Source: a virus (Duplodnaviria > Caudoviricetes). Taken from it: a DNA stretch of 44,286 nt. The translations under genes were made by a program, and so were the position numbers. Below, one piece after another: positions 2 through 41,614 of this stretch. Below the pieces are notes generated by a model that had not been told where the DNA came from, did no database searches, and was given only the letters and a program-made list of their open reading frames with translations. Within the stretch, counting starts at the first letter, position 1; each line of letters begins with the position of its first letter. The stretch lies in IMG/VR virus record IMGVR_UViG_3300012952_000033, positions 1 through 44,286 of that record. One strand, given 5' to 3'.

Positions 2-2122
2 GAATATGATGTAGTTGTTATTAGTAAAACTGGTAAAATTGGTGAGATATATGAAATACAAGGTTTAAAAATAGCTTTACCTTTACTAGAAAAAACGTAT
101 AAAAGATCTAATAAAAAACTAGAACAATATTGGGAAGTGTTTGAATCTCCAAAAGAATTAAGTAAATTAAAAACTGTTTTTGATTGGAATCAAACATCTC
201 TAGATTTTAAAAATAAATGGTATGACTATATTGATGAAGAGTTTAAAAGAAGGGAACAAGGTTTTAGTTTCTATAATAAAGGTATTCCTACCTATATTAC
301 TGGCTCTCATTATATGTACTTGCAGTGGACAAAAATTGATGTTGGCTCTGCGCAGTTCAGAGAATCAAACCGCTTATTCTATATATTCTGGGAAGCATGT
401 AAGTTGGACTATCGATCCTATGGAATGTGTTATCTTAAGAACAGAAGGTCTGGATTTAGTTTCATGGCCAGCTCCGAACTCGTTCATCAAGCTACAATTT
501 CCGCTGACTCGAGGTATGGCATTTTATCCAAGACTGGTGGAGATGCAAAGAAGATGTTCACAGATAAGGTGGTCCCCATTTCGGTTAACTACCCCTTTTT
601 CTTTAAGCCTATTCAGGACGGAATGGACAGGCCAAAGACTGAACTGGCATATAGGGTACCGGCATCGAAGTTTACCCGCCGCAAGATCGACCAGAACGAG
701 CAGGCCGAGGAGCTCATCGGGCTTGACACTACCATTGACTGGAAGAATACCGGTGATAACTCCTACGACGGGGAGAAACTCAAATTACTCGCCCATGATG
801 AATCAGGTAAATGGGAGAGGCCGGACAATATACTCAACAACTGGAGGGTCACGAAGACAACGTTAAGACTTGGAAGTAGAATTGTAGGTAAATGTATGAT
901 GGGTTCTACCTCTAATGCTTTAGATAAAGGTGGTGCTAATTTTAAAAAATTATATGATGCTTCAGACGTTAAAAAAAGAAACCGCAATGGACAGACTGGT
1001 TCAGGATTATATTCTTTGTTCATACCTATGGAATGGAACTACGAAGGATACATCGATTCTTATGGCTTTCCTGTATTCGACACACCAAAAAAACCGATTA
1101 AAGGAATTGACGGAACAACAATTGAAATTGGGGTTATCTCGCACTGGGAAAATGAAGTAGAAGGTTTAAAAGAGGATCAAGACGGTTTAAACGAATTATA
1201 TAGACAATTTCCACGTACAGAAAAACATGCTTTTAGAGATGAAGCAAAAGAATCTTTATTTAATTTGGCAAAAATTTATGAACAAATAGATTATAATGAA
1301 GATTTAAAACACTCTAGAGCTATAACACAAGGTAATTTTCAATGGGAAAGTGGGATTAAAGATACTAGAGTAATGTTTGTTCCTAATAATAGTGGTAGAT
1401 TTTTTATTTCATGGATACCACCTATTAATTTACAAAATAGATATATAATTAAAAATGGTATAAAATATCCAGCAAACGAAGACTGTGGTGCTTTTGGATG
1501 TGATCCATATGATATATCAGGAACTGTAGATGGCAGAGGCTCAAAAGGTTCTTTACATGGTTTAACTAAATTCACTATGGCGGATGTTCCTCCTAATACA
1601 TTTTTTTTAGAATATATAGCTAGACCACAAACTGCAGAAATATTTTTTGAAGATGTTTTAATGGCAATTGTATTTTACGGTATGCCTATACTTGCAGAAA
1701 ATAACAAACCAAGATTATTATATTATTTAAAACGTAGAGGTTATAGAGGATATTCAATGAATAGACCAGATAAAATTTACAATAAATTATCTGTAACAGA
1801 AAGAGAAATAGGTGGTATACCTAATTCTAGTGAAGATATAAAACAAGCTCATGCTGCTGCTATAGAAGATTATATAGAAAATTTTATAGGATTTGATGGT
1901 GAAAACTATGGAGATATGTATTTTCAACGTACTTTAGAAGATTGGGCTCAATTTAATATAAATAATAGAACACTACATGATGCTTCTATAAGTTCTGGGT
2001 TAGCAATTATGGCTTGTAATAAAAATAAATATAGACCTATTGCTGAAAGAAAATTAACAACTGTACCTTTAGGTTTTAAAAAATATGACAATAAAGGAGT
2101 AAATTCAAAAATACTAAATTAG
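2..2122 (+). CDS. terL: Terminase large subunit (5'-truncated; frame is open from position 2)
   Basis: Walker A-like KNRRSGFS, Walker B LLAHDE, RNase H-like nuclease motifs GCDPYD, ILAENN and HDASISSG. Lies directly before the portal gene. Confidence 0.93.
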   Translation, partial: EYDVVVISKTGKIGEIYEIQGLKIALPLLEKTYKRSNKKLEQYWEVFESPKELSKLKTVFDWNQTSLDFKNKWYDYIDEEFKRREQGFSFYNKGIPTYITGSHYMYLQWTKIDVGSAQFRESNRLFYIFWEACKLDYRSYGMCYLKNRRSGFSFMASSELVHQATISADSRYGILSKTGGDAKKMFTDKVVPISVNYPFFFKPIQDGMDRPKTELAYRVPASKFTRRKIDQNEQAEELIGLDTTIDWKNTGDNSYDGEKLKLLAHDESGKWERPDNILNNWRVTKTTLRLGSRIVGKCMMGSTSNALDKGGANFKKLYDASDVKKRNRNGQTGSGLYSLFIPMEWNYEGYIDSYGFPVFDTPKKPIKGIDGTTIEIGVISHWENEVEGLKEDQDGLNELYRQFPRTEKHAFRDEAKESLFNLAKIYEQIDYNEDLKHSRAITQGNFQWESGIKDTRVMFVPNNSGRFFISWIPPINLQNRYIIKNGIKYPANEDCGAFGCDPYDISGTVDGRGSKGSLHGLTKFTMADVPPNTFFLEYIARPQTAEIFFEDVLMAIVFYGMPILAENNKPRLLYYLKRRGYRGYSMNRPDKIYNKLSVTEREIGGIPNSSEDIKQAHAAAIEDYIENFIGFDGENYGDMYFQRTLEDWAQFNINNRTLHDASISSGLAIMACNKNKYRPIAERKLTTVPLGFKKYDNKGVNSKILN
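222..866 (+). CDS. Candidate overprinted gene in the +1 frame of terL (N-terminal hydrophobic anchor, S/T/R/P-rich tail)
   Basis: 214 open codons in an AT-rich genome, coinciding with visibly GC-rich terL wobble positions (~400-870). Begins ...KVFLPILLALIICTCSG. Confidence 0.5.
   Translation: MTILMKSLKEGNKVLVSIIKVFLPILLALIICTCSGQKLMLALRSSENQTAYSIYSGKHVSWTIDPMECVILRTEGLDLVSWPAPNSFIKLQFPLTRGMAFYPRLVEMQRRCSQIRWSPFRLTTPFSLSLFRTEWTGQRLNWHIGYRHRSLPAARSTRTSRPRSSSGLTLPLTGRIPVITPTTGRNSNYSPMMNQVNGRGRTIYSTTGGSRRQR
930..1160 (+). CDS. Second candidate +1-frame overprinted ORF in terL (76 aa)
   Basis: Same frame as 222..866. Host codons here are again enriched in C/G endings (CGC, TAC, ATC, TTC, GAC, TCG). 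Confidence 0.3.
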   Translation: MVLILKNYMMLQTLKKETAMDRLVQDYILCSYLWNGTTKDTSILMAFLYSTHQKNRLKELTEQQLKLGLSRTGKMK

Positions 2123-4531: not shown

Positions 4532-4559
4532 TTTATTATTAATTTTATATTATTTTATT

Positions 4560-5825
4560 ATGTCAAAAAAACAAACAAAAAAAGAGGTTGAAGAACCAAA
4601 AAAAATAGAAGAACAAACTGAAGTAAAAGCAAATGAACCTGTAAAAAAAGAAGGTGAATTTAAAGTAAAATCAGTTAAAAAAGTAAAACAATTAGGTGAA
4701 GACAAAGTGCCTGATATAATTAAAGTAGATTTAAGTAAACCTAAAAAAGAAAAAGAAGAAGATGCCGTTCAAACACACAAGACAAATGATAGCGATGCTG
4801 TTGTCGAAAAACCCAAAGACAGTAGCAACAGCGAAGAAGTGGTTGAAGAAGTACGGCAAACCGACGAAGAAGTAAAATCTGATTCACCAATACAAGAAAT
4901 AAATGAAGAAGATAATACTAACGAGACAGGAGTGGCAGGAAGCGATGAAACTACCACTACCACATCGAAACAAAAAGAAATATTACAGGAAGCAGAAACA
5001 CAAAAGCTCCCTGAAAACATAGAAAAATTAGTAAAATTCATGGAAGAAACAGGTGGCACTGTTGAAGACTATACTCGGTTAAATGCTGATTATAGTAAAG
5101 TAGATGACAACATGTTATTACATGAATATTACAAACAAGCTAAACCTCATTTAAATATGGAAGAAAGAAACTTTATAATAGAAGATTCTTTTACATATGA
5201 TGAAGAGGTGGATGAAGAGCGAGATATTAAAAAGAAAAAACTCGCTTACAAAGAAGAAATTGCAAAAGCTAAAAACTTTTTAGAAGGCCTAAAAACTAAA
5301 TATTACGACGAAATCAAGTTGAGACCCGGAGTAACACAGGAACAACAAAAAGCAATGGACTTTTTCAATCGCTACAACGAAGAACAAGCAGCACAAGAAG
5401 CAATACGTGAAAGGTTTGTATCTAATACTAAACAAACATTTAACCAAGAATTCAAAGGTTTTGATTTTAAATTAGGAGATAAAAAGTTTAGATATGGTAT
5501 AAAAGATCCTTCATCAATTGTAAATAACCAAAGTGATATATCTAATTTTGTTGGAAAGTTTCTAGGCAAAAATGGAGAAATTGTTGATACTGTTGGTTAT
5601 CACAAAGCTTTATATGCAGCACGAAATGTGGATACTATTGTTAACCACTTTTATGAGCAAGGTAAAACTGATGCTATAAAAGAACAGTTAGCTAAATCTA
5701 AAAATATTAGTACAGAACCTCGTAAAACAGCTTCTGGAGAAGTATTTATAGGTGGTTTAAAGGTAAAAGCAATTAGTGGTTATGATTCTTCAAAATTGAG
5801 AATAAAAAAGAAAACGTTTAATTAA
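4560..5825 (+). CDS. Putative capsid scaffolding/assembly protein
   Basis: Acidic low-complexity N-terminus and helical C-terminus, located between the portal and major capsid genes. Confidence 0.65.
   Translation: MSKKQTKKEVEEPKKIEEQTEVKANEPVKKEGEFKVKSVKKVKQLGEDKVPDIIKVDLSKPKKEKEEDAVQTHKTNDSDAVVEKPKDSSNSEEVVEEVRQTDEEVKSDSPIQEINEEDNTNETGVAGSDETTTTTSKQKEILQEAETQKLPENIEKLVKFMEETGGTVEDYTRLNADYSKVDDNMLLHEYYKQAKPHLNMEERNFIIEDSFTYDEEVDEERDIKKKKLAYKEEIAKAKNFLEGLKTKYYDEIKLRPGVTQEQQKAMDFFNRYNEEQAAQEAIRERFVSNTKQTFNQEFKGFDFKLGDKKFRYGIKDPSSIVNNQSDISNFVGKFLGKNGEIVDTVGYHKALYAARNVDTIVNHFYEQGKTDAIKEQLAKSKNISTEPRKTASGEVFIGGLKVKAISGYDSSKLRIKKKTFN
4762..4875 (+). CDS. Hidden 37-aa basic peptide in the +1 frame of the scaffold gene (MPFKHTRQMIAMLLSKNPKTVATAKKWLKKYGKPTKK)
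   Basis: Manual translation, ATG 4762 to TAA 4873-4875. Host codons are unusually GC-ending. Resembles MPFK...Q...P...AKKW..KYG small phage proteins (from memory). Confidence 0.55.
   Translation: MPFKHTRQMIAMLLSKNPKTVATAKKWLKKYGKPTKK
4903..5022 (+). CDS. Hidden 39-aa basic peptide in the +1 frame of the scaffold gene, ArfA/BrfA-like C-terminus (MKKIILTRQEWQEAMKLPLPHRNKKKYYRKQKHKSSLKT)
   Basis: Manual translation, ATG 4903 to TAG 5020-5022, with an A-rich upstream context and an NKKKYxRKxKHK motif. Confidence 0.55.
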   Translation: MKKIILTRQEWQEAMKLPLPHRNKKKYYRKQKHKSSLKT

Positions 5826-5841
5826 AAAAAATAAATAAATT

Positions 5842-7296: not shown

Positions 7297-7303
7297 TTTT
7301 TTA

Positions 7304-7341: not shown

Positions 7342-7366
7342 ATTAACTATTTAATTATATTATATC

Positions 7367-10199: not shown

Positions 10200-13100
10200 A
10201 TGGCAGAAGTTAAAAATGCTTTTATTAAATCCAAAATGAATAAAGACCTGGATGCCAGGCTTTTACCAAATGGGGAATATCGTGAAGGAGTTAATATACA
10301 AGTAAGTAAATCAGAAGGTGCCGACGTAGGAGCGTTAGAAAATGTTTTAGGTAACAAACTTCTTATAGATTTTAAAACTTTAAGTGGTTGTAATTGTAAT
10401 CTTACAACTATTGGTTTATATACAGATGAAGTTAACGATAATATATATATATTTTTAACTGATTATGATGAAACTTTATCATCGACATATAATTTTCAAT
10501 CTTTAAATTATTCTTCTACAGCAAACAATTATATTTATGTTCACAACACTTCTAGTAATGAAACAAATTTATTAGTTACAGGTGCATTCTTAAATTTTTC
10601 TAAAAATTTCCCTATACTTTCTGTTAATTTATTAGAAGGTATTTTATTTTGGACAGATAATAGAAACCAACCTCGTAGAATTAATGTAACTTTAAGAAAA
10701 GAAACATATGTTGCAACCCCTCCTTATTATAATTCAGAAGATCAACTCTCAGTAGCTACATATGCGCCTTTTCAATCTATACAATTATACCATAAAAGAG
10801 ATGCTTCTTTTTTACCAAACGGAGGTTCTGCTTTAACAGATGGAATAACAACTACAGGTAGCAGCACAATACTATTACAAGCTGATAATAGATTAGGATT
10901 AGCTAGAGAATTAGGTGTAGATAAAACATTAATTGGTGCTACTATAACAGCTGTAGATGCAGCAGGGGTAACTGTACCAGGTATTCCTGCAGATACGGTT
11001 TTACAAAGTTTTGCAAATGGTAATCAAATAACTATAATAGATAGATCTAATTTATCTACCGGTACACCTTTAGCTACAACCACGGTAGATATACCTGCAG
11101 GTACTACAATTTATTTTAACCAAAACACATTAACAGCGCTTACATCACCAAGCTATTGGGTAACAAGTATGGAAGATGCTAGCACGCCGATGAACCCTGG
11201 CGGTACATACAACGAAGACTTTCCTGGTTTAACAACTAATCCAAATTACAACCCAAAATTTAATGGAGATCCTGATTTTTTAGAAGATAAATTTGTAAGA
11301 TTTAGTTATCGTTTCAAATATTCTGATGGTAATTATTCTGTTATGGCCCCGTTTACACAACCAACATTTATACCTAAACAAGATGGTTATTTTATAGGTC
11401 AAACCACACCAACAGGTAATACTACAGATGAGCAAGCTACATATAGAAGTACTGTTGTTGATTTTATGGAAAATAAAGTTAATAATATATTTTTACAAAT
11501 ACCATTACCGTTAGATAAAGATAACAATGGTATTCAAGCTATAAATTTATTTGATACTTTAAAAATATCTGAAATAGAAATTTTATATAAAGAATCAGAT
11601 GCGTTAGCAGTACAAGTTGTAGATGTTATACCACAAACAGGGAATACAGGGTATGAAAGATTTAATACTTCTACAACTATAGAATATAATTATCAAGGTA
11701 GTAAACCTTATAAAACTTTACCAGATGATGAATTAATTCGAGTATATGATAAAGCTCCAGTTAGAGCTCATACTCAAGAAATAATTAGCAATAGATTAGT
11801 TTATGGTAATTTTCAAAACAAACATACTCCACCAGAAACATTAGATTATAATGTAGCTGTATCTGATAAATATACAACTTTTGTTGCGGATGATCCTACG
11901 GTACCACGACCTATTGAAAGAACAGTATCAAGAGAATATCCAATGCACACTGTTAAACAAAATAGAAATTATCAAGTAGGGGTTATATTGTCTGATCGAT
12001 ATGGTAGAAGCTCTACAACTATATTATCGTCTGTTAATACACAAGCAACAGATAGTGATAATTTAACATTATTAGGAGATACTGTTTATTTTCCATATAA
12101 TGAAGTTTCTAACACAACAGCTAATGAAAATAGAATACAACAATGGCCAGGAGATTCTATTAAAATACTTTTTAATACCCCAATAAAAGAAAATGTACCT
12201 GCTAATATTACTACAGGTTGGCCAGGTTTATATAATGGAGATCCTACTAGCGCAGAATATAATCCACTTGGTTGGTATAGTTATAAAATAGTTGTTAAAC
12301 AAACAGAACAAGAATATTATAATGTTTATTTACCAAGCATTATGAATTTTTATCCTAACCTAACAGCTGCTCAACAGTCTACCGCACCTGATCCAGCTGA
12401 TACAGTTTCATTTATTTCTCTTATAAATGATAATATAAACAAAGTACCTAGAGACTTATCTGAAGTTGGTCCAGAACAAAGACAATTTAGAAGTTCTGTA
12501 CAATTGTTTGGTAGAATAGCACCACATGCAAACGCTACACCTACTTATAATTATCAATTTAATCCAGTAAATACTGCTACTAACATTGCTATACCAGATA
12601 CAGTATCAACTATATCTGATCAAAATAATATGTTTGATAATACAACAGGTACTAAATATGGATCTATATATCAAACAGTTTCAAACCCTTCTTTAGCAAG
12701 GGTATCTATAGGTAATTCAGCAGATCCTATTGGTACAAAAGCTACAACTAATGTTACTGATGATCAAACTCAGTTTTTAAGTATTTATGAAACACAACCA
12801 GTTGAATCAAGATTAGATATATATTGGGAAACATCATCAGCTGGTACAGTATCTGAGTTAAACACAGCTATTAAAGAAGGTTCTGCAGTAATTAAAAACT
12901 TTACTACAGATACAAACATGTCTTTAGCTCCTGATACTTGGACATTTAATTTAGCTGAAGATATTACTCCAACTGCATCACCAACAGCAACATATAGTAA
13001 TGGTTTATATACACCTTTACCTTTCTTTCCTTATACATCTGACGCTTCAGGAGTAAAACTACCTGTAATAAATAGCAACATTGATACAACTTCAGGTTTT

Positions 13101-28357: not shown

Positions 28358-28504
28358 ATGGGATACTCACAAAGCAAATCTCCTTTTACAAAGAAAAAAA
28401 CATCTTGTTGGGAAGGATATAGTAATATAGTTAATGGTAAACCTACTTTTAAAAAGAAAGGTAAAAGAATGGTACCAGATTGTAAACCTATAAATAAAAA
28501 ATGA
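28358..28504 (+). CDS. 48-aa basic Cys-pair protein (not in ORF track)
   Basis: MGYSQSKSPFTKKKTSCWEGYSNIVNGKPTFKKKGKRMVPDCKPINKK, with the CWxGY...KKG...VPxC phage motif. Fills the gap exactly and its stop overlaps the next ATG (ATGA). Confidence 0.75.
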   Translation: MGYSQSKSPFTKKKTSCWEGYSNIVNGKPTFKKKGKRMVPDCKPINKK

Positions 28505-28854
28505 GACACTTTACTATTACCGAATTTGATTCACCTGATGAGGTAGGTAGTGGTAGATTGATGAATGTAGATTTTTTAGAAAAACTAGATTTAGCTAGAT
28601 CTAAATTTGATAAACCTATTAAAATAAATAGTGGTATGCGCACATCAGCTCATAATGCTAAAGTAGGCGGTAAACCTAATTCATCTCATTTAACAGGCTA
28701 TGCAGCTGATCTGCATTGTAATAATTCAAGGGATAGATACGATCTAATTAATTGTTTATTAGACGTAGGATTTAATCGTATAGGAGTAGGTAATACTTTT
28801 ATTCATGTAGATTCTGATCCTTCTAAATCACAAGATGTAATATGGACATATTAA
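28501..28854 (+). CDS. Peptidase M15-family endolysin
   Basis: INSGMR...HN..VGG..NSSHLTGYAAD...FIHVD zinc-binding motifs. Confidence 0.88.
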   Translation: MRHFTITEFDSPDEVGSGRLMNVDFLEKLDLARSKFDKPIKINSGMRTSAHNAKVGGKPNSSHLTGYAADLHCNNSRDRYDLINCLLDVGFNRIGVGNTFIHVDSDPSKSQDVIWTY

Positions 28855-29000: not shown

Positions 29001-29258
29001 TTAATCATCTATATATCTGCATACTGTAACATCAAATTTATCATATGCAATTATTTCTCCTTTTAATTTATTTAAACAATAATTTTCTCCATCTTTTCGT
29101 TTTTCAATTGCAACTCTTGTTGTCCAACTTATAGTTCCTGAATCATATATATATTCACAACATAAAAACTTATCAGCTGGTAAGTAATTCCAACTTAAAT
29201 CACCTTGATAATATTCACCACAAGATGTTAATAATAATGCTCCTATTAACCATCGCAT
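29001..29258 (-). CDS. Cys-rich lipoprotein
   Basis: MRWLIGALLLTSC lipobox; start at ATG 29258, overlapping the end of nrdA. Confidence 0.7.
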   Translation of the reverse strand: MRWLIGALLLTSCGEYYQGDLSWNYLPADKFLCCEYIYDSGTISWTTRVAIEKRKDGENYCLNKLKGEIIAYDKFDVTVCRYIDD

Positions 29259-30964
29259 GCTAAACAATTTTCATCCATAGCTTTAGCAGCTATATCTCCA
29301 CGTAACACAGATTCAGTTCTCATATAATATAAAGTTTTAATACCTTTTTTCCAAGCTTCTAAATGTACTTTATTAATCCATTTAGGTGTTGCTTCTGAAG
29401 GAAATGCAAGGTTAAGAGATACTGATTGATCTATATATTGTTGTCTTAAACCAGCTTGTGCAACTAATTCTAATTGATTTATTTCTTTAAAGGTTTTAAA
29501 TACTTCTTTTACAGGTATATCATTAGCAAAAAATATATTATCAAGTTCTTTTATATCTTGTATTGATCCACCATCTTCTAATATTTTATCCCATATTTCA
29601 TTAGTATTTAATTTATGTTTTCTTAATAACTTAATTAATGTAGGATTTTTTCTTATAAATGTACCTTTAGCAGACTGCTCTGTAAATACATTTGCAGCCC
29701 ATGGTTCAATACCTGGTGATATGTTACCAGCTAGTTTACTATTAGAAACTGTAGGTGCAATTGCTCTTAAATGAGTGTTACGCATACCTGTACCAACACA
29801 CCATAATGGCTCACCATAAACTTCAGCTAAAGCCATTGATGCTCTTTCAGATTCTATTTTTATTTGACTAAATATTTTTCTTGTTTCATACTGAGCTAGT
29901 AATCCTTCAAAGGGTAAACCTTTTTCTTGAAGATATGTGTGCCAACCTAATACACCAAGGCCTAAAGCTCTACCTTTTTCAGCAGATCTCACTGAGTTTT
30001 CAAACCCAATTTTACCTTTAGCTTTTTGTATAAATTCTTCAAGCACCCCATCAAGGAACCATATAGCATCATGTATAATATTAGTGTTTTTCCACTCTTC
30101 ATATTTTGCTAGATTTAGACTAGATAAACAACATACAAAACTATGTGATTCATCTGTTTGTAATACTATTTCACTACATATGTTTGTCATATGTACTTTT
30201 AAACTGTTTTTCTTATATGCTGCTGGATTAGCTTTGTTTGTATTTCCTTTAAATAAGATATACGGTTCTCCAGTGGCTTTACGTTTTTGTATAAGTCTTG
30301 ACCACTTTTTTCTAGCTTCTGGATCTCCTGCTTCAAGTTTTCGCATAAACTTATCACCAACGACAGCACACTGGTGCAAGTTAAGAGATTGTCTATTGAC
30401 ATCTCCTTTAGGTTCTCTAATTTCAAGCCAGTCGAGAAAATCGTTGTGTTCAATATTGATATTAACGCTTGCAGCTCCTCTTCTAACGGCGCCTTGGTTG
30501 GTCGCGAGTATAGTTGAGTCATATATTTTGCAAAAAGGGACAACGCCGTCTGAAGTTCCATTACCTGTAATTTTAGCTCCGGCAGGACGAATCATATTAA
30601 CTCCGATACCTACACCCCCACCGTGTTTTGCAAGTAACATCATCTCTAGGTTTTTCTTACCTATATCATTTATACTATCAGCTACATCTATTCCAAAACA
30701 ACTTATTGGTAGACCTCTATCTGTACCAGTGTTAGATAGTACAGGTGAAGCTAAGCATAGCCAACCATTCCATATATAATCAAAAAATTTATCTGCAAGT
30801 TCTGGTTTATATAAACGTTTAGCTACTGTTTTAGCTACTCGCATATAAGCGTCCCGAGGAGATTCTCCATTAAATAAATAACCACCGGATATAGTTTGTT
30901 TATATATATCGTTGTTACCCCATGAAGGATAATCAACACCTTTTTCCCAATCGTTATTCCACAT
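29246..30964 (-). CDS. nrdA: Class I ribonucleotide reductase alpha subunit (short, no ATP-cone)
   Basis: SPVLSN, ISCF, GGGVG, TNICSEI (catalytic N-x-C-x-E), CCLSSLN, IAPTVSNS, KTLYY, C-terminal CLAC. Confidence 0.95.
   Translation of the reverse strand: MWNNDWEKGVDYPSWGNNDIYKQTISGGYLFNGESPRDAYMRVAKTVAKRLYKPELADKFFDYIWNGWLCLASPVLSNTGTDRGLPISCFGIDVADSINDIGKKNLEMMLLAKHGGGVGIGVNMIRPAGAKITGNGTSDGVVPFCKIYDSTILATNQGAVRRGAASVNINIEHNDFLDWLEIREPKGDVNRQSLNLHQCAVVGDKFMRKLEAGDPEARKKWSRLIQKRKATGEPYILFKGNTNKANPAAYKKNSLKVHMTNICSEIVLQTDESHSFVCCLSSLNLAKYEEWKNTNIIHDAIWFLDGVLEEFIQKAKGKIGFENSVRSAEKGRALGLGVLGWHTYLQEKGLPFEGLLAQYETRKIFSQIKIESERASMALAEVYGEPLWCVGTGMRNTHLRAIAPTVSNSKLAGNISPGIEPWAANVFTEQSAKGTFIRKNPTLIKLLRKHKLNTNEIWDKILEDGGSIQDIKELDNIFFANDIPVKEVFKTFKEINQLELVAQAGLRQQYIDQSVSLNLAFPSEATPKWINKVHLEAWKKGIKTLYYMRTESVLRGDIAAKAMDENCLACDG
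30199..30561 (-). CDS. Candidate +1-frame overprinted coiled-coil protein in nrdA (120 aa)
   Basis: Same strand, +1 frame, coinciding with a GC-rich island at ~30350-30630. Confidence 0.45.
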   Translation of the reverse strand: MELQTALSLFAKYMTQLYSRPTKAPLEEELQALISILNTTIFSTGLKLENLKEMSIDNLLTCTSVLSLVISLCENLKQEIQKLEKSGQDLYKNVKPLENRISYLKEIQTKLIQQHIRKTV

Positions 30965-31218: not shown

Positions 31219-31484
31219 TTGAATAAATATATTGTGTAACCTACGATTACATTAAAATTAATAAATACTAAATTCCATTGCTTAGCAACCCACACTTGGG
31301 GTGTACACACAATACCACCTATAATATATGTTATAGCTCCTATATTTCCATATGGTAATAAATAAGGACTTATCATTATAAACCCTGTACCTAAATACCC
31401 AAGTCTATTTGCTAATCTTTCTTTAGGTGAAAGTCTTCTGTTTTTAACTAAATACCTTAAAAATCTTTTCTTAATCATTACCAC
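31215..31484 (-). CDS. Small multi-pass membrane protein
   Basis: Basic N-terminus plus about three hydrophobic segments. Start may be ATG 31478. Confidence 0.7.
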   Translation of the reverse strand: MVMIKKRFLRYLVKNRRLSPKERLANRLGYLGTGFIMISPYLLPYGNIGAITYIIGGIVCTPQVWVAKQWNLVFINFNVIVGYTIYLFK

Positions 31485-31782
31485 ATATCTTCAAAGTCTT
31501 CACCTTCATTAGCTTTCGAATAATCAGTCGGACGCACAGCAAAAAAATCAGTATGAGTGTGGCCCCCGGTAAGATGATAGAACCAGTCAAGATCTTCTGC
31601 TCCTTTTTTGTCAAACTTAAAGTACTCCCGCTCGTCTTTGTAACCGAGTTCAACAATTTTCTCATTGAGTCTTTTTCTAATAAACTGTTTGAGGTCGTAA
31701 GCTTTAAGGTTTTCAATATCTCCTTGCTCGAACATTTTGTCAATATATTTTTCTTCTGCTTTAAGCATTGTTTTTGCTGCAT
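31471..31782 (-). CDS. Candidate +1-frame overprinted protein in the nrdB 3' end (103 aa, C-terminal TM)
   Basis: +1 frame, GC-rich host wobble positions at ~31490-31740, hydrophobic segment ILTGSIILPGATLILIFLLCV. Confidence 0.45.
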   Translation of the reverse strand: MQQKQCLKQKKNILTKCSSKEILKTLKLTTSNSLLEKDSMRKLLNSVTKTSGSTLSLTKKEQKILTGSIILPGATLILIFLLCVRLIIRKLMKVKTLKICGND

Positions 31783-32446
31783 CTAATATATCTTTTTTAC
31801 AATTAGTTAATAATGTTTTATCTTCTTTACACATATGACGGAATAAAGCACAACCCATCTTACTATGCAGTGATTCATCACGCACACTCCATTTCATCTG
31901 CTGCCCAATACCTTTTAATAAATTTCTGAGCTGAAAACTATATAAAACAGCAAAGGCAGAATAAAGGCTAACACCTTCAGCGAAGGCGCTAAATATAGCA
32001 ATGCTTCTTGCAATTCCTGTGGGTTTATTTCCATCATAACTAACTAAATTATCAAAGCGTTCCATTGTTGCTTCGTCTTGTAAAAACGCTTCAAAATTTT
32101 CAAGACCAAGGGTTTCATTTAAATATGAATAAGCTACAGCGTGTATTGTTTCTTGTGATCCAAACATCATAGCCATTTGTTGTATTTCGTGTTTTGGAAA
32201 CCACGTTACAACTTTTTGTGTCCAATAATCTGATACTGCACATTCTGTTTGTGCAAACCCAAGTAAGATATTACCAACTAAGTTTTTCTCACTTGGTGTA
32301 AGCTTTTCGTTCCAATCTTTTACATCACTAGACATAGGTATTTCCGTGTGTAACCAAAAAGCTTGTGCTTGTTTTAACCAACCTTCTGTATAATACTCTG
32401 GATATTCAAAAGGTTTATAAGGTATTCTTTCATCAAATAATCCCAT
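31478..32446 (-). CDS. nrdB: Class I ribonucleotide reductase beta subunit
   Basis: FWLHTEI, QETIHAVAYS, EGVSLYSAF, RDESLH and DFF motifs of the diiron/tyrosyl ferritin-like fold. Confidence 0.95.
   Translation of the reverse strand: MGLFDERIPYKPFEYPEYYTEGWLKQAQAFWLHTEIPMSSDVKDWNEKLTPSEKNLVGNILLGFAQTECAVSDYWTQKVVTWFPKHEIQQMAMMFGSQETIHAVAYSYLNETLGLENFEAFLQDEATMERFDNLVSYDGNKPTGIARSIAIFSAFAEGVSLYSAFAVLYSFQLRNLLKGIGQQMKWSVRDESLHSKMGCALFRHMCKEDKTLLTNCKKDILDAAKTMLKAEEKYIDKMFEQGDIENLKAYDLKQFIRKRLNEKIVELGYKDEREYFKFDKKGAEDLDWFYHLTGGHTHTDFFAVRPTDYSKANEGEDFEDMW
31915..32037 (-). CDS. Candidate +1-frame 40-aa membrane peptide in nrdB
   Basis: MMEINPQELQEALLYLAPSLKVLAFILPLLFYIVFSSEIY; host codons AGC GCC TTC and CAG CTC are unusual for this genome. 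Confidence 0.3.
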   Translation of the reverse strand: MMEINPQELQEALLYLAPSLKVLAFILPLLFYIVFSSEIY

Positions 32447-32763: not shown

Positions 32764-33167
32764 TCTTTTTGATTTTGTGGTTTATATAAAGTAACACCAG
32801 GTAAATGGTTTACTACATATCTTTTAAACATTTTCCAACGTAAAGGGAAACTTTCATTAGCTCTACCTTTAGTTTCTATTATAAAACCTCTGCCTATAAA
32901 ATCAGGTGTATATTTAATATTAAGTATTTTTTTATTACCTCTATTTTTATATTCTCCTTTTCCATTACCACATCTTTCATAAGAAAGATTAGGAAAATCA
33001 AATCCAGAAAATATTTCATAGGTTTGGCCTTCATATACAGCGGGTATTTTAGATTTTTTTAATGCCATATACATATACCTTTCCAATCCTGATGAAAAAG
33101 TAATTCCATCATATGTTATTTTTTTAGATTGTACAGGTCCTTTTTTACGTCTATATTTATTTTTCAT
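32718..33167 (-). CDS. PD-(D/E)xK endonuclease, T7 endonuclease I/Holliday junction resolvase-like
   Basis: FSSGLE, YTPDF and IIETKG motifs. Confidence 0.8.
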   Translation of the reverse strand: MKNKYRRKKGPVQSKKITYDGITFSSGLERYMYMALKKSKIPAVYEGQTYEIFSGFDFPNLSYERCGNGKGEYKNRGNKKILNIKYTPDFIGRGFIIETKGRANESFPLRWKMFKRYVVNHLPGVTLYKPQNQKECDATVRLILETKNN

Positions 33168-35077: not shown

Positions 35078-35078
35078 A

Positions 35079-36788
35079 TCAATCCCAAGGCATTACATCA
35101 TTAATTTGCTTCTGATCTAAATGAGGTATAAAACAACCTGACTTAGGTTCCCATTTAAAATAAGCTTCTGCTCCATTTTCACCTAAGTTTTGAAACTTAA
35201 CTTTTAAAACTTTAGCTTTAACAGTTTTAGCTTCATAATCTCTATGTACTAATATACCGTGGTAAGAAGCATCATACCATTCACCACCACCTTTTATATT
35301 ATACATATTTGGTTCTTCAATTTTACCATCTTTGTCTTTATACATTTTAGTTGGATGTGCAACTATAAAAACTAACACATCAAACTTTTTTGCAAACACC
35401 TCTATTTTAGTAAGATATTCCATTGTATACTTATTAACATCTTCAGTATTACAATCAACATCTCTAATTTTATTAAAAGGATCTATAACAAGACATTTAA
35501 TACCTTTACGTTTAACTAATTCAGCACCTTTACGTAATACCGATTCAAGAGTATATCTTTCCATATCAATAAAAAAGAAATTATCATTAATATGTTCTGC
35601 TACTTTTTTCCATTGACTAGTATTTATATCACCAGGGGTTGGCATACCTTGCCAAACTTTACGCATTAATTTATGTGCATGTAAATATGTTGGTGCATTT
35701 TCAGGCGACGCAAACGCTGTTTTCCATTTATAATTTATGTTATACCCAACAACAAGCTGATCAACAAAATCAGACTTACCAGAAGAAGGTATACCTGTAA
35801 CAGTAATAAATTGTCCTGTATAAGTTGAAAAAATTCTGTCAAAGTTGGATAAACCAGCTTGGTAACCCGGTTTAAAACCATGTTGTACAAAGTCTGTAAC
35901 TTCACTTTCAATATCATTAAAAGTGGTAACGTTTTCAAGAGGTACTGCTTTGGGGTGTTGGAGAATATTTGAAAAAGCTTCTTTACCATGTTTAATTAAG
36001 TATTCATTAGCATCTTTACAATCTTTAAAATCTATAATATAGCAAACTTCTGCACCTAATCTTCTAATTAACTCTTGTTGTAGTGCTTGGCCTGCTTCAT
36101 CATTGTCAACTGCTAATATTATTTTATTTTTATTTTCAAAATAATCAATACAATTATCTAAGTAATCTAAATTATTAGAGTTTAAAGTAGCTCCATTAGG
36201 GACTGATATAACATTAGTAATCCCCACTTCATGAAGAGATAAAGCATCCATCTCTCCTTCCACAATATAACATTCATCATAACCAATAATGCTATCAATA
36301 TTATAGAAGATTTTTTCTGCACCTTTATATAATTTAAAGTTTTTCCTACCATCTCTATATTTTATATTTATAAGTTCACCACCCATCATGTAGTTGAACT
36401 TTATTGTGTTTTCAGTCTTACTTGTCTGTGGCATAAACTCAGGACCCTCAGATACATTTAAATCATTAAGGGTCGACTGAGATATACCTCTGTCATTAAA
36501 CCATTTAACTATTTTGCTACCTACAGGTTTGTGACTTTTGAATTCTGGACGAATATAATTTTTTTCACTGTCTCCTTTACGCTTGTAAGTGTGTAGTTGA
36601 AATGTTTTATTACAGTTATGACAAGTACCGAGACCACGTTCCCAATCATAAGAAGCACATTTAAGCTTTTTATTTTTAGGTTGTCTAGTGTGTGAGCATA
36701 ATGGGCATATTCCTTGAGACTTACCCTGCTCTAGACCATGTTGATTAAATTTATCAATCACAAATCCATTGATCTCTGTTATTTGCAT
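35079..36788 (-). CDS. DNA primase-helicase (T7 gp4/Twinkle-like)
   Basis: Zn finger CPLC...CHNC, TOPRIM VEGEMD and DNDEAG, Walker A GIPSSGKS, VIDP, VAHP. Confidence 0.93.
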   Translation of the reverse strand: MQITEINGFVIDKFNQHGLEQGKSQGICPLCSHTRQPKNKKLKCASYDWERGLGTCHNCNKTFQLHTYKRKGDSEKNYIRPEFKSHKPVGSKIVKWFNDRGISQSTLNDLNVSEGPEFMPQTSKTENTIKFNYMMGGELINIKYRDGRKNFKLYKGAEKIFYNIDSIIGYDECYIVEGEMDALSLHEVGITNVISVPNGATLNSNNLDYLDNCIDYFENKNKIILAVDNDEAGQALQQELIRRLGAEVCYIIDFKDCKDANEYLIKHGKEAFSNILQHPKAVPLENVTTFNDIESEVTDFVQHGFKPGYQAGLSNFDRIFSTYTGQFITVTGIPSSGKSDFVDQLVVGYNINYKWKTAFASPENAPTYLHAHKLMRKVWQGMPTPGDINTSQWKKVAEHINDNFFFIDMERYTLESVLRKGAELVKRKGIKCLVIDPFNKIRDVDCNTEDVNKYTMEYLTKIEVFAKKFDVLVFIVAHPTKMYKDKDGKIEEPNMYNIKGGGEWYDASYHGILVHRDYEAKTVKAKVLKVKFQNLGENGAEAYFKWEPKSGCFIPHLDQKQINDVMPWD

Positions 36789-36824: not shown

Positions 36825-37135
36825 TAAAAGGGTAGATCAGGTTCTTGAGTTGGTTCAGCTTTAGCTGCTGCTTTTGGCTGATCCATTCTAGGTGCTGCTT
36901 CTACATTCATACCGTTAGTCCAAACAACTTTTGCATTACCTAAATAAGTTTTAGATGCTTTTGTTTCTCTTTCTTCTTTTGTTTGTTCTACAATAACAGG
37001 TCCATTATTACCAAATTGGTCTACTTCATCATTTAGAGTTAAGCTTATAGGTAAATACTTACCTTTAGCTCCTACAATAATTTTATCCTTAGGGATATTA
37101 TTTAAATTAATACTTGTTTTTATTATTGATGCCAT
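36824..37135 (-). CDS. Single-stranded DNA-binding protein (putative)
   Basis: Small beta-rich domain, flexible tail ending in DLPF, next to recombination genes. Confidence 0.7.
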   Translation of the reverse strand: MASIIKTSINLNNIPKDKIIVGAKGKYLPISLTLNDEVDQFGNNGPVIVEQTKEERETKASKTYLGNAKVVWTNGMNVEAAPRMDQPKAAAKAEPTQEPDLPF

Positions 37136-37866: not shown

Positions 37867-38382
37867 TTACAGTGTTGTAAGTTCTTGTTCTAATTTAGGG
37901 TTAATATTATATTTTGCTTTAATAGTAGCTAGTTTACCGCCAGATTTTAAATATTTTTTAGCTTGTGTTATTTGATCTGGTGTCATATTTCTGTTATGAT
38001 CATTTACAGCATCACTGTCTTGCGTGTCATCGATTAAGAATAAATTTCCTAATGCGTATTTCTTCCCATAACTTGAAGCAGAACCAAACTGCTGTGGTGT
38101 TTGCATGCCTTTTTGCAAAAGATCTACACCAACTAAAGCTGTTGCTTTAATTGCATTTTTACCATCAGATATGGTTGCTATACTCTCAATAATAGGCATA
38201 GGTTTACTTTTAATTAAATTTTCATTTAATGTTATTGTAACTCCTAATTCTAATAAAAAGGGTTTAGTTGCTTCGAGAATGTCTTCGGCAGAGCGGAAGT
38301 AGTATTTGCCGAATGAATTAAATCTACTTTTTTTCGATTTAAACTTAGTCTGAATAGTTGCTAACTTATCGTTAAGTGTCAT
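37867..38382 (-). CDS. erf: ERF-family single-strand annealing protein
   Basis: FNSFGKYYFRSAEDI and QQFGSASSYGKKYALGNLFLIDD..D.D signature. Confidence 0.88.
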   Translation of the reverse strand: MTLNDKLATIQTKFKSKKSRFNSFGKYYFRSAEDILEATKPFLLELGVTITLNENLIKSKPMPIIESIATISDGKNAIKATALVGVDLLQKGMQTPQQFGSASSYGKKYALGNLFLIDDTQDSDAVNDHNRNMTPDQITQAKKYLKSGGKLATIKAKYNINPKLEQELTTL

Positions 38383-38443
38383 AGGTTTAAAGGGTTTATA
38401 TTATATATAATTACATATTAAAATTGCTATTTACATCTGTATA

Positions 38444-39196
38444 CTACAGATAATCAAGCACTTGCGAGTGATCTACATTATCAATTAATTTTCTTACAGC
38501 TTGTTTTTTAAGCTCAGAAACTCTAACATAACCACTAGGTCCCTTGATATTAATTTTATCAGCTATTTGTATAGCAGAATGCTTATCACAATCAAGGCCA
38601 TATGATAGTCTTAAGACTTCATATTCATTTTTTTCTAAATGTTTTTTCATTAAACTTTTTAAATAACTATTTAGAATATTAATATTATATGGTTCAGATT
38701 CATCAGGTATTTGATACACCATATCTTCATCACCTGTCATTGTTTTTTTATCTATACTTAAAAATATAGAATTAAAAAACATTTCAACCATCTTTTTATC
38801 TTTTGGATTTTTACGTATTTCATTCATTTTATGTTCAGGTATTCTTATATTACCTCTATTATGATCTATAGCTCTACGTATAGCACCCTTAATGCGTTTG
38901 AAAAAAAACGATTTTAATGTTTTTTCTTTATCTTTTGATTCAGATAATACTGAATAATCTAACTTATCAACTGCTTTTACAAGTCCTATTGATCCTTCTT
39001 GTATTAAATCAGTTATATCTAATATTCCTGATGCTTGTTGTGAAGTTGAAAATTTTCTTGCTATATTTTCTACTAATGGTAGAAATTTATTTATTAAATC
39101 ATTTCTATTATAGTCAACAATATTACTTAATATAGGTTGAGATTCCTTTACGTCTTCTTTGTATCTAATATAATTAGATATATTATATTTCTTCAT
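38444..39196 (-). CDS. Sigma70-family RNA polymerase sigma factor
   Basis: LPLVENIARKF, DLIQEGSIGLVKAVDK (region 2), IRIP (region 3), VLRLSYGL...RVSELKKQAVRKL (region 4). Confidence 0.9.
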   Translation of the reverse strand: MKKYNISNYIRYKEDVKESQPILSNIVDYNRNDLINKFLPLVENIARKFSTSQQASGILDITDLIQEGSIGLVKAVDKLDYSVLSESKDKEKTLKSFFFKRIKGAIRRAIDHNRGNIRIPEHKMNEIRKNPKDKKMVEMFFNSIFLSIDKKTMTGDEDMVYQIPDESEPYNINILNSYLKSLMKKHLEKNEYEVLRLSYGLDCDKHSAIQIADKINIKGPSGYVRVSELKKQAVRKLIDNVDHSQVLDYL

Positions 39197-39791
39197 TTAA
39201 ATTAATTTTTTCAATTTTTAATTTTTTATTTAAATTACGATAAACAGTTCTTACAGAACAGTTTAATAGTTTTGCAACCGAAACCCATGTTATCTTTTTA
39301 TTTGATTCGTGTAAATTTAACATGCATTGATAAATATCTTCTTTTTTTACAACTGAAGATCTACCAATTAGTTTACCTACTATTTGTAATTTTTCGTTTG
39401 TTGTTAATTTAGTTTGTTGATTAAACACTACCTTTCGTTTTCTATTAACCGGTGGTCGATCTATTTCTAAATTATCCAACATGTCAACTAAATACTTTTC
39501 TTTTATATTAAAAGTAATAAAATTATTTTTTTTATTTGTTATATAATATGCAAGATTATTAAAATCTTTATCTTCTAGCTCTGGGTTTAAATACTTTAGA
39601 ACTAACAAGTGCCATTTAAGTGATTTAAAACTAGTTATTTTTGCTTTACTTTTAAATAACTCATAGCACTCGTATGTTCCATTTTCATAAAATTTACCCC
39701 AGGTAAATATTTTTGTTGGCTTATCAGTTATAGGATCTCTATTATATATAATTCTATTCCTATTTAAATAATCTATTTTCCTGTATGACAT
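39183..39791 (-). CDS. DNA-binding protein with C-terminal HTH (possible replication initiator or regulator)
   Basis: ITWVSVAKLLNCSVRTVYRNL helix-turn-helix. Confidence 0.7.
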   Translation of the reverse strand: MSYRKIDYLNRNRIIYNRDPITDKPTKIFTWGKFYENGTYECYELFKSKAKITSFKSLKWHLLVLKYLNPELEDKDFNNLAYYITNKKNNFITFNIKEKYLVDMLDNLEIDRPPVNRKRKVVFNQQTKLTTNEKLQIVGKLIGRSSVVKKEDIYQCMLNLHESNKKITWVSVAKLLNCSVRTVYRNLNKKLKIEKINLNEEI

Positions 39792-39830
39792 TAGCCTATT
39801 ACTCTATTAAATATTACTACCTATTGTCAT
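39785..39830. promoter_or_regulatory. Inverted repeat overlapping the start of the HTH gene (operator or origin candidate)
   Basis: ATGACATTAG ...26 nt AT-rich... CTATTGTCAT (9/10 match), with internal TATTACT direct repeats. Confidence 0.45.
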
Positions 39831-40033
39831 CTTAAGGTAGGAGTCTCTTGAAACTTTTTAAGTTTCTCAGAGTACTTTATAATCAATTCTGCTTTGTGAT
39901 CTAATTTATGTAGTTTTATACGTTTATTTTTCGCTTTACATTTTAAAACATAATTAGTTATATCTTTACGTAACTCATATATTGAGTTCCATAAATAATC
40001 TCTATGTCCGTTTTTTCTGTTTTTTATTAGCAT
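39827..40033 (-). CDS. Hypothetical basic protein
   Basis: 68-aa ORF in the early/middle gene array. Confidence 0.6.
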   Translation of the reverse strand: MLIKNRKNGHRDYLWNSIYELRKDITNYVLKCKAKNKRIKLHKLDHKAELIIKYSEKLKKFQETPTLR

Positions 40034-40109
40034 TTTGTTTTCTTTTACGTTTTGCGTTCATATTAAATAAATTCACACTTATCATATGATTAAATAGTTT
40101 TCTACTCAT
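40002..40109 (-). CDS. 35-aa basic peptide (not in ORF track)
   Basis: MSRKLFNHMISVNLFNMNAKRKRKQNANKKQKKRT; starts just after the upstream stop codon. Confidence 0.5.
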   Translation of the reverse strand: MSRKLFNHMISVNLFNMNAKRKRKQNANKKQKKRT

Positions 40110-40110
40110 T

Positions 40111-40353
40111 TTAATTACAATTAGTTAAATATCCTCTTATTACCTCTTCACAATATGCTCTTCTTGAATAGGTTAACCAACCTACACTTCTTGTGCCCGG
40201 TTGTAATTTAATAACATCCCATTTACCTCTTTCTTCATCATAATATACACAATCACAGAGGTTATCTGGAACGACATATGTAGGCATATCTACATCGTCT
40301 ATATAGCAACTTTGCAATGCTAAAGCTGCGCAAATTAATTTTATTTTATTCAT
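40111..40353 (-). CDS. Cys-rich lipoprotein
   Basis: MNKIKLICAALALQSC lipobox followed by acidic YIDDVD. Confidence 0.75.
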   Translation of the reverse strand: MNKIKLICAALALQSCYIDDVDMPTYVVPDNLCDCVYYDEERGKWDVIKLQPGTRSVGWLTYSRRAYCEEVIRGYLTNCN

Positions 40354-40630
40354 TACTTAAATATTTTTGATATAATATAAATGATACTATTTTAAATATA
40401 GTACCTAACATAACACCCATCATCATTTGTAATTTAGAGGTTTCTATTGCATAGTAACCATATAATGTTACCATATCAAATATAAACATACATATTAAAG
40501 GTATTATTATTGTTTTTCTAATATAATCAGCAATAAGGGCTACAGCATAACCGCTAAAACCCATAGTTACTGCTATCATAAAAGGTACAATTAAATCTAC
40601 TAGTTTTGTCATAATTCTTCGTATTCCCAA
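40346..40630 (-). CDS. Small membrane protein (about 3 TM)
   Basis: Mostly hydrophobic 94-aa ORF. Confidence 0.7.
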   Translation of the reverse strand: MGIRRIMTKLVDLIVPFMIAVTMGFSGYAVALIADYIRKTIIIPLICMFIFDMVTLYGYYAIETSKLQMMMGVMLGTIFKIVSFILYQKYLSNE

Positions 40631-40863
40631 ACCACACCAGGTGGATGGCTGTTTAATATATCATTAATTACTTTTTCTTGTATAAACGGTTTGACCTCTT
40701 GATTAATTAAATACTCTTGAGGTCCCCTGTTGTACACAATTAATTTACCCAAAGGTTTATTCATAATTTCTAATAGATTTAAATAGAGGATGTCTATATG
40801 ATCCTCTAGGCGTCTTTTGAAAGTATGTAAACGTAGCTGTTTTGCCAATATAATCTTTGACAT
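40609..40863 (-). CDS. Hypothetical protein overlapping the ligase 3' end
   Basis: ATG 40863 in the +1 frame of the ligase gene; fills the gap to the next gene. Confidence 0.6.
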   Translation of the reverse strand: MSKIILAKQLRLHTFKRRLEDHIDILYLNLLEIMNKPLGKLIVYNRGPQEYLINQEVKPFIQEKVINDILNSHPPGVVWEYEEL

Positions 40864-41614
40864 TAACAAGCATCATTGCCATAGTGTCATAATCTTCCAT
40901 AACAGGCATGCCGAAATTGATGCCATTGCTATCAACAGCCAAGAATTTGCCAATTGTTCCGCTTCTTTTACCTTTGCCTTCAACATAGCCAACAATTGTC
41001 GCTTCTGTGTCATGGAAATCTTTGAATTTTTGTAAGTTGTAACTTCTTTTTTGTTCATAAGGTTTGTTGTTTCTAATTATACTACCTTCATAACCATCTT
41101 TAATATAGTGATCATGCCATAATTTAGCTGAATCAAGTAAAGATACTTCATATGCTTCAACTGGCACGATTGGAAATTTTAAGATTTTATGAAATATGGA
41201 TTGCAGCTCTGTTACGTTTAGTTTAATAAGCTGATGTCTTCTTCTATATGTTGCAAATTTATCACTTGGGTTGTAAAAGTCATACCAATGAAACTGTATA
41301 TACTTTTCAGCTTCAGCTCTATCTTCATCAGTTAGCTTTTGTTTTCTCACAAGGGATATAATTTTATTGAAGTTGTCTTTAAATTGGTGGTTGTAGAGTT
41401 CACCGTCAAGTATTATATCGGGTGCCAATTCAAATATAGGTTTAAACAGATCTTTAATGTGATCTACAGTTTTAAACTCTTTATGGTTGCGGCTAAATGC
41501 GCCGTCTTTAGTTATGTAGCATCTAACACCATCTAGTTTTGGCTGGATAAAAGAGTCTTTATCAAACGCTTTTTTGCCATATGGGTGTGCGAGCATTACA
41601 TTAAAATCACTCAT
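40757..41614 (-). CDS. ATP-dependent DNA ligase
   Basis: QPKLDGVR (motif I), LDGELY, GYEGSIIR, LQKFK, C-terminal OB fold ending YRHP.F. Confidence 0.93.
   Translation of the reverse strand: MSDFNVMLAHPYGKKAFDKDSFIQPKLDGVRCYITKDGAFSRNHKEFKTVDHIKDLFKPIFELAPDIILDGELYNHQFKDNFNKIISLVRKQKLTDEDRAEAEKYIQFHWYDFYNPSDKFATYRRRHQLIKLNVTELQSIFHKILKFPIVPVEAYEVSLLDSAKLWHDHYIKDGYEGSIIRNNKPYEQKRSYNLQKFKDFHDTEATIVGYVEGKGKRSGTIGKFLAVDSNGINFGMPVMEDYDTMAMMLVNVKDYIGKTATFTYFQKTPRGSYRHPLFKSIRNYE
40873..41058 (-). CDS. Candidate +1-frame membrane peptide nested in the ligase gene
   Basis: C-terminal WLLIAMASISACLLWKIMTLW; host codons are GC-ending (GGC, AGC, TTC) at ~40880-41030. Confidence 0.4.
   Translation of the reverse strand: MNKKEVTTYKNSKISMTQKRQLLAMLKAKVKEAEQLANSWLLIAMASISACLLWKIMTLWQ

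Follow-up and report, generated by a model that had tools for sequence, protein, structure and literature searches.

The DNA examined here is IMGVR_UViG_3300012952_000033, a linear virus record of 44,286 bases in IMG/VR (CheckV completeness 69%), analysed over its whole length (hereafter the window), and our subject is a set of small open reading frames (ORFs) nested in the +1 frame of its core genes. The plus strand carries terL, the portal gene, a scaffold-like gene, the capsid gene and virion genes, and the minus strand carries nrdA, nrdB, primase-helicase, ligase and others. Judged by sequence similarity, the source is an uncultured phage akin to Flavobacterium and Cellulophaga podoviruses. 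Its TerL shows 65% identity to that of an uncultured freshwater phage and 47% to those of Flavobacterium Elemovirus phages, and of 87 TerL-matching records 85 bear the names of Flavobacterium, Cellulophaga or Tenacibaculum and one that of Maribacter; we infer a host among the Flavobacteriia. Genomes of relatives are mostly 60-70 kb. The available text of PMC5332604 describes abundant uncultured Flavobacteriaceae phage groups. Our analysis indicates, with good confidence, that this phage family holds +1 frames open in its terminase, scaffold, nrdA, nrdB and primase genes and that these frames are likely translated from internal starts.

The initial annotation had reported ten ATG-initiated +1 ORFs in these genes, and all ten are present where it placed them, except that the 76-aa one in terL starts with GTG rather than ATG. 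For comparison, 454 loci were collected in six IMG/VR scans; homologous coding sequences were aligned via their translations, near-duplicates were removed and at most 110 sequences were kept per gene, the pools behind the aligned sets comprising 142 nrdA, 214 nrdB, 119 scaffold and 117 portal matches. Genes g8, g13 and g29 had too few relatives, and g9-g12 lay outside the comparison. Open-frame counts take in all aligned sequences, the window included. Most +1 stops come from Leu, Ile or Val codons ending in TA (xTA) that are followed by a codon starting with A or G. Before C or T such an xTA codon creates no +1 stop, which provides a built-in control for composition.

The terL gene (2..2122, plus strand; phrog_6681, E 9e-153) is cut at its 5′ end by the window edge, its frame being open from base 2, and full-length relatives have about 735-758 codons. 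Its first nested frame, terL-1 (222..866, plus strand; 214 aa, alternative ATG at 234), specifies a product with a basic N-terminus, a hydrophobic leader ending in CxC and a tail rich in Ser, Thr, Arg and Pro. Over codons 78-222 this frame is open in 64 of 102 aligned sequences with 0.0 expected. Codons of the xTA type make up 160/918 in stop context vs 649/1053 in non-stop context, and outside terL-1 the two contexts are alike (2069/3224 and 1293/1982, 0.64-0.65 in both). The terL sequences are bimodal, 45 of 81 being free of +1 stops in codons 78-221 (null mean 7.8, maximum 16), and the openness of one half of the region predicts that of the other (3/204 vs 204/328). At the 8 stop-opportunity columns we counted 109 parsimony changes among non-stop codons. 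Where a +1 stop stands at codon 76, an ATG is found at codon 77 or 78 in 20 of 21 open sequences vs 8 of 28 closed ones. Three leader Leu positions (57/64, 63/64 and 63/64) and a Cys (57/64) are kept in open sequences vs 8, 14, 10 and 11 of 36 closed ones; these leader residues are under site-level selection. Among relatives terL-1 ends anywhere between codons 223 and 289, and the ORF is absent from MW202828 and from Elemovirus terL. It drew 27 database matches, and all 12 that were inspected resemble the +1 product or host/+1 chimeras. The second frame, terL-2 (954..1160, plus strand), comprises 68 aa from the ATG at 954, or 76 aa from the GTG at 930. It is open over codons 318-365 in 94 of 105 sequences (19.7 expected), xTA codons number 15/203 in stop context vs 241/476 in non-stop context, and four-fold changes counted on a tree amount to 11.7 vs 27.2 in the control.

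The nrdA gene (29246..30964, minus strand; PF02867, E 6e-94) contains a +1 ORF of 120 aa with fixed start and end (30199..30561, minus strand), whose frame over codons 135-253 is open in 99 of 110 sequences with 0.0 expected. Here xTA codons occur in 62/1498 cases where a +1 stop would form vs 480/856 where it would not, and 178 parsimony changes among non-stop codons fall at 13 stop-opportunity columns. The ORF ends at codon 254 or 258 in 99/99, and its ATG occurs in 98 of the 99 open sequences vs 106/134 of a matched-context background, as well as in 9 of 11 closed ones. Four-fold changes on the tree are reduced over the overlap (15.3 vs 26.6 over 27 and 23 columns, p < 0.001). Site-level constraint is present in nrdA and terL-2 as it is in the terL-1 leader. 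The ORF is absent from immuto, phi14:2 and six other nrdA loci. All 9 inspected of its 33 database matches were the +1 product or host/+1 chimeras. The product is predicted to form a helical bundle, with a mean predicted local distance difference test score (pLDDT) of 73.6 and a predicted template modelling score (pTM) of 0.61; the model had no Foldseek match at E ≤ 0.001 and generic helical-bundle matches only (best Z 10.7), and the ESM Atlas gave no usable match. A predicted 7-bp GC stem (30580..30623, minus strand; RNAalifold, 94 sequences) ends about 19 nt before the +1 ATG. Its pairing codons are enriched in open over closed nrdA (Pro CCC in 84/99 vs 1/9, Gly GGC in 82/99 vs 1/9), and the changes in it are one-sided only, with no two-sided ones. 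It is possible that this stem aids internal initiation; ahead of the +1 starts in terL, nrdB and primase no conserved stem turned up. Two more long fixed-start +1 ORFs lie in relatives' nrdA at codons 2-100 and 287-418/446 (e.g., L113, L131, L093, L094). They are absent from the window, open in 35 and 44 of 110 sequences, co-occur in 32/35 and exclude the long nrdB C-terminal form (0/13 and 0/15).

In nrdB (31478..32446, minus strand; PF00268, E 3e-56) two nested frames were found. The C-terminal one (31471..31782, minus strand) spans 103 aa and has a conserved core of 64 aa from the ATG at 31665; the core (codons 260-320) is open in 108 of 110 sequences (0.6 expected) and the upstream extension in 52 of 110 (0.0 expected), with core xTA codons at 5/573 in stop context vs 77/137 in non-stop context. 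The middle one (31915..32037, minus strand) is a hydrophobic ORF of 40 aa, open over codons 134-163 in 100 of 110 sequences (2.2 expected), with xTA codons at 14/506 vs 105/241. In some relatives the C-terminal ORF extends 1-37 codons beyond the nrdB stop, and in some loci its last part is an acidic tail common to them, possibly the small gene that follows. Another +1 ORF, at codons 5-70 of relatives' nrdB, is open in 13 of 110 and does not occur in the window.

The primase-helicase gene (35079..36788, minus strand; phrog_239, E 6e-83) holds an 84-aa +1 ORF with a hydrophobic C-terminus (35735..35989, minus strand) that had been overlooked in the initial annotation and is without a GC island. 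It is open over codons 267-340 in 34 of 72 sequences against 0.2 expected, xTA codons number 150/728 in stop context vs 193/320 otherwise, and its ATG is present in 34/34 open vs 17/36 closed sequences. A 56-aa ORF in the same gene (36182..36352, minus strand; 14/72 open, 0.9 expected) is tentative. The 42-aa ORF flagged earlier (36521..36649, minus strand) is ambiguous: it is present and open in 33 of 70 sequences with 11.6 expected, yet its conservation is weak and it offers few stop opportunities. The 61-aa ligase ORF (40873..41058, minus strand) failed as a hidden gene, being open in 3 of 64 relatives with 0.8 expected. The gene that follows ligase (40757-40869, minus strand) has its start some 35 codons within the ligase gene, in its +1 frame, with the ATG in some 80% of relatives. 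The resolvase gene (32894-33058, minus strand) has a 54-codon +1 run that is open in 17 of 110 sequences with 2.3 expected and without clear stop-specific avoidance (0.50 vs 0.64).

The scaffold-like gene (4560..5825, plus strand) is named by its place between portal and capsid and has no family match. Two small basic genes are nested in its +1 frame, scafA (4762..4875, plus strand; 37 aa, MPFK-type, phrog_1375-like) and scafB (4903..5022, plus strand; 39 aa, phrog_6310/DUF7230-like). Among 110 scaffolds, 62 carry scafA alone, 16 both, 9 scafB alone, 4 a third type and 19 none, which places scafA in 78/110 and scafB in 25/110. The third type (L434, L443, L451, L453) is a conserved basic +1 peptide of 43 aa, MLSK-type, in the scafA/scafB slot. 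The ratio of nonsynonymous to synonymous differences (pN/pS) is 0.17 for scafA in the +1 frame vs 1.30 in the host frame (36 pairs), and 0.18 vs 1.46 for scafB (11 pairs), so that it is the nested gene that is conserved here, with the scaffold frame running across it. ScafA and scafB, which looked like chance by length, are the best proven of the nested ORFs: they are conserved protein families under protein-level purifying selection. A 28-aa ORF further along, scafC (5197..5283, plus strand), is present as claimed and weakly conserved (18/110 open, 8.7 expected), and it is probably a passive by-product.

Profile searches gathered 808 protein clusters for scafA and 463 for scafB. The members resemble phrog_1375 and phrog_6310/DUF7230, small phage proteins of unknown function: 19 of 45 scafA members match phrog_1375 at E ≤ 0.05 (best 9e-6), 13 of 22 scafB members match phrog_6310 (best 3.7e-5) and 53 of 62 match DUF7230 at E ≤ 1. 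The window copies match weakly or not at all; scafA has no direct profile match but reaches 5e-13 against a profile of relatives from which the window copy was excluded, and scafB scores 15.3 bits against DUF7230, below the cut-off of 27. Such proteins are free-standing elsewhere and nested here. A scafA homologue is annotated free-standing in Streptomyces phage FlowerPower (gp48) and in phage 023Pt_psg01, and 77 of the best 80 IMG/VR matches to scafA and all 89 matches to scafB are nested in scaffold genes. FlowerPower gp48 (L615:1501-1719) lies between peptidase and holin genes, and in P-RSP2, S-CBS2 and C75C1 the scafA-matching stretch is without gene annotation on that strand. Many scafB homologues (P0151, P0161, P0170, P0182, P0193) have similar C-terminal tails after the conserved core; these may reflect read-through into a downstream element that they have in common. 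Sequence matches of scafA in the PDB proved to be repeat artefacts and its ESM Atlas search gave no usable match; scafB had no PDB sequence match. The ribosome-rescue factor ArfA (PF03889) of E. coli, which binds non-stop ribosomes and recruits RF2, has a basic Y-x-R-K-x-K-H stretch in common with scafB. The two differ otherwise, with an hhalign probability of 3.7 (E 0.011) and no GKGS segment in scafB, and PF03889 matches 0/62 and 0/22 members and nothing in the window, leaving only a weak resemblance. The available part of PMC12753301 reports an ArfA copy in a pelagiphage.

We set the window as a whole against synonymous shuffles of this single genome (1000 per gene, 31 genes). The longest +1 runs in terL (220 codons), nrdA (130) and nrdB (101) exceed the shuffles (all p < 0.001) and that in primase (86 codons, p = 0.03) is marginal, whereas those in ligase (p = 0.095) and scaffold (p = 0.69) stay within the null. 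ATG-started +1 ORFs of at least 60 aa number 7 vs 1.1 expected, and those of at least 28 aa 31 vs 27, so that short +1 ORFs are at chance level by length alone. Since only terL, nrdA and nrdB clearly beat the shuffles, relatives were needed for the test. In the relatives seven +1 ORFs are kept open (two each in terL, scaffold and nrdB, and one in nrdA), in addition to the 84-aa one in primase. The proposal of a hidden layer of small genes in core genes is thus upheld for the main ORFs, whose frames in relatives avoid stops in a stop-specific manner instead of being scattered with them. No +1 window was flagged in the portal, three virion, holin-like, lysin, exonuclease, Erf, sigma or SSB genes. 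One window was flagged in capsid, yet its open count equals the null (11 vs 12.9); thyA has at least one flagged window, an early one; and a 63-aa +1 ORF in g7 is open in 1 of 24 relatives.

The GC-rich codon islands noticed at the outset are a partial guide to these ORFs. The genome is indeed A/T-ending at wobble positions, with a mean proportion of G or C at third codon positions (GC3) of 0.146 over the genes examined. GC3 is raised under six of the ten ORFs, namely terL-1 (101/205 vs 22/407 in the rest of the gene), terL-2 (19/66), scafA (14/38 vs 41/309), scafB (11/40, p = 0.03), nrdA (31/118 vs 38/428) and the 103-aa nrdB ORF (29/95 vs 23/166). It is not raised under scafC, the 40-aa nrdB ORF, the ligase ORF or any of the three primase ORFs, including the 42-aa one (p 0.16-0.35), and a GC island therefore marks only some +1 ORFs. 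With Leu, Ile, Val, Met and Trp codons left out of the terL scoring, the same host codons have a GC3 of 0.61 where covered by the +1 ORF (n = 35), 0.27 past the +1 stop (n = 26) and 0.26 in closed sequences (n = 36); further along terL the values are 0.64 where covered (n = 19) vs 0.24 (n = 41). As GC3 falls at the stop in each lineage, the island tracks that lineage's own +1 stop. At four-fold sites T drops from 0.51 to 0.29 and C and G rise, T being kept in the leader. In the +1 frame the host wobble base takes the second codon position, and replacing T there by C or G would make the +1 product less hydrophobic. The shift agrees with the bias of overprinted proteins to disorder-promoting residues described in the accessible text of PMC8227390, and the islands are likely a consequence of the second coding frame. 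In virion gene g8 (about 11100-11300, plus strand) there is a small GC3 rise (0.2-0.4 over some 60 codons) near codons 300-370 without a long +1 ORF.

Stop-specific codon avoidance, with start codons tied to the open state, is present in the family, and the nested genes are almost certainly real for scafA and scafB, very likely so for nrdA and terL-1, and probably so for the nrdB, primase 84-aa and terL-2 frames. Several points weigh against this. The depression of synonymous variation that had been proposed as a check is seen on the tree for nrdA and terL-2 and is missing from close pairs in most enzyme overlaps. The close-pair rate of host-synonymous, +1-changing substitutions is 0.286 vs 0.288 in the control for terL-1, 0.312 vs 0.329 in nrdA, 0.335 and 0.372 vs 0.31 in nrdB, and 0.373 vs 0.378 for the 84-aa primase ORF; tree-based four-fold counts are not lowered for terL-1, the nrdB core or the primase ORF. 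The start position varies among relatives in the nrdB middle frame and in terL-2, where 10 of 94 open frames are without an early ATG. Upstream of the nested starts lie patches that look A-rich, but the nrdA +1 start has G rather than A at -3. The open-frame intervals were set once the data had been seen, the aligned sequences are kin selected for likeness to window proteins, and the host is deduced from similarity only.

The unlowered close-pair rates, together with the variable terL-1 ends and the limited similarity of the +1 products (about 35-60% among most relatives), speak for a different account, namely that the enzyme-nested frames are translated and it is the act of translation that matters (through mRNA protection, coupling or ribosome traffic), with only the scaffold genes encoding functional proteins. 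Weak constraint is expected of young overprinted genes according to the available text of PMC8227390, yet it leaves room for such a role. We consider this account unlikely, in view of the residue-level selection in the terL-1 leader, the nearly frozen columns and fixed length of nrdA, and a composition shift that runs along the entire ORF. Programmed +1 frameshifting or slippage, yielding truncated host-enzyme fusions, would explain the few database proteins that are host/+1 chimeras (P0008; 9 inspected), although these may be assembly errors, and L402:4769-5813, where scafA shares the frame of the C-terminal part of the scaffold, may be a natural frameshift or another such error. A +1 stop stands 1-3 codons before the conserved ATG in terL (21/63), primase (30/34) and nrdA (51/99), and a stop just before a selected ATG favours initiation and disfavours frameshifting; the ATG is moreover specific to open sequences and the chimera junctions lie at differing places. 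Frameshifting is accordingly very improbable.

Recombination with higher-GC donors, of which long +1 ORFs would be a by-product, is largely refuted, and we give it hardly any credence. Alleles do recombine, as the open/closed label requires 12 changes on a tree built from outside the terL overlap and 6 on one built from inside it (about 30 when shuffled). But xTA use is unchanged where no stop results, GC3 drops at the stops as described, the 84-aa primase frame is held open with no GC island, and high GC alone leaves the +1 frame closed, since L003 (40% GC, GC3 0.49 in the region) has 7 stops and MW202828 terL (GC3 0.42) has no +1 run above 46 codons. An mRNA structure or other nucleotide-level signal that constrains wobble bases and removes xTA incidentally could draw on the stem upstream of the nrdA start and might explain terL-2 alone, with its low synonymous rates and few stop opportunities, yet it is just as hard to credit, because folding z-scores are flat over the overlaps (means of -0.9 to +0.6 in the terL, nrdA and nrdB ORF windows, 12 sequences each, with no sign of RNA structure) and the avoidance follows the next base just as stop codons demand.

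Other features of the window include a tRNA-Met gene (42633-42707, minus strand), an endolysin gene (28501-28854) and two small genes on the minus strand (29001-29267, adjoining the endolysin gene, and 40111-40353) with signal-peptide-like leaders ending in Ser-Cys, which are likely ordinary lipoproteins. A sigma-70 promoter scan of the window was at chance level (34 vs 28.9), and the RNA runs that match the window do so at contig level only (word shares 0.05-0.09) and are uninformative on reading frame.

If the nested frames are genes, about seven small extra proteins overlooked by standard annotation are likely made. Initiation could follow from the host: ribosomes of the Bacteroidia type would have no need of a Shine-Dalgarno sequence and would start at AUGs with upstream adenines, and in an mRNA of 70% AT internal AUGs could yield low-level +1 products open to capture by selection. 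The accessible text of PMC6847099 describes initiation without Shine-Dalgarno pairing in Flavobacterium johnsoniae, favoured by A at -3, -6, -12 and -13 and by low structure. Two routes may have operated. By one, old small basic genes would have become nested in a weakly constrained, acidic N-terminal part of the scaffold, where we infer the order of arrival of nested gene and scaffold; by the other, new genes would overprint conserved enzymes, with their gain, extension and loss differing from lineage to lineage. The ORFs inside the enzyme genes look like recent births, terL-1 and the nrdA ORF being absent from cultured relatives, and their products have no significant match in Pfam or PHROGs. 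The nested products are most likely co-expressed with their host genes. From their predicted sequences, those of terL-1, the nrdB core and the 84-aa primase ORF would most likely be membrane-anchored accessory proteins (best 15-residue mean hydropathy 2.4, 2.7 and 2.1); one hydrophobic stretch in each suggests membrane anchoring, yet T-ending host codons yield such stretches passively. The nrdA product, going by its model, would most likely be a soluble helical protein, and scafA and scafB would most likely be nucleic-acid- or ribosome-binding peptides.

Nested +1 genes as such are already known. Rz1 of phage lambda, as described in the available text of PMC6139136, is likewise a whole gene in the +1 frame of a phage gene that gene callers overlook, and terL-1 also has a hydrophobic leader with cysteines. 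Unlike Rz1, the genes studied here have a terminase, reductase, primase or scaffold as host rather than an i-spanin, lie outside a lysis cassette and number at least seven in one genome. Nor is terL-1 placed like an Rz1-type o-spanin, its host gene being a terminase outside a lysis cassette with i-spanin. Its product is lipoprotein-like, but the leader is without the consensus lipobox [LVI][ASTVI][GAS]C, for Leu occupies -3 in 63/64 sequences but Thr or Ile occupies -1, and the host sequence dictates the first Cys; deviating lipoboxes do occur according to the same source. The Microviridae overprints (phiX174 B, E and K, and OG63 in reekeekeevirus Rep; PMC9865509, part of the text) were also found by conservation or selection tests and also show high apparent amino-acid change in the new frame, whereas they sit in single-stranded DNA genomes of 3-6 kb and ours in a tailed double-stranded DNA phage whose lineages differ in gain, extension and loss. 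Viral genes born de novo by overprinting, as described in PMC8227390, share a restricted distribution, unusual codon use, disorder bias and weak purifying selection when young; that benchmark is drawn from eukaryotic viruses, and in the scaffold cases here the roles are swapped, with conservation in the nested frame. Overlaps of more than 50 nt are annotated in 61% of double-stranded DNA virus genomes (PMC7017920, in the text available). No description of the ORFs reported here was found in the literature searched, mostly open-access main texts; they differ from known cases in number, in having conserved enzymes as hosts and in their visible turnover.

Nested +1 genes in tailed phages have mostly been single cases, such as Rz1, whereas here at least seven occur in five core genes of a family that we estimate at some 16,000 terL stretches in IMG/VR. 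If they are translated, annotation of such phages overlooks a protein class, and synonymous sites in the widely used markers terL and nrdA are not neutral. Alleles of three kinds, open, extended and closed, coexist, which makes gene origin by overprinting testable in natural populations. On balance we lean slightly towards reading these frames as a fast-turnover +1 coding layer in an abundant marine phage family, in which cheap starts free of Shine-Dalgarno sequences would make core enzymes gene nurseries, the scaffold linker would serve as a slot for interchangeable small genes, and birth, C-terminal extension, exchange and loss could be read from thousands of genomes.

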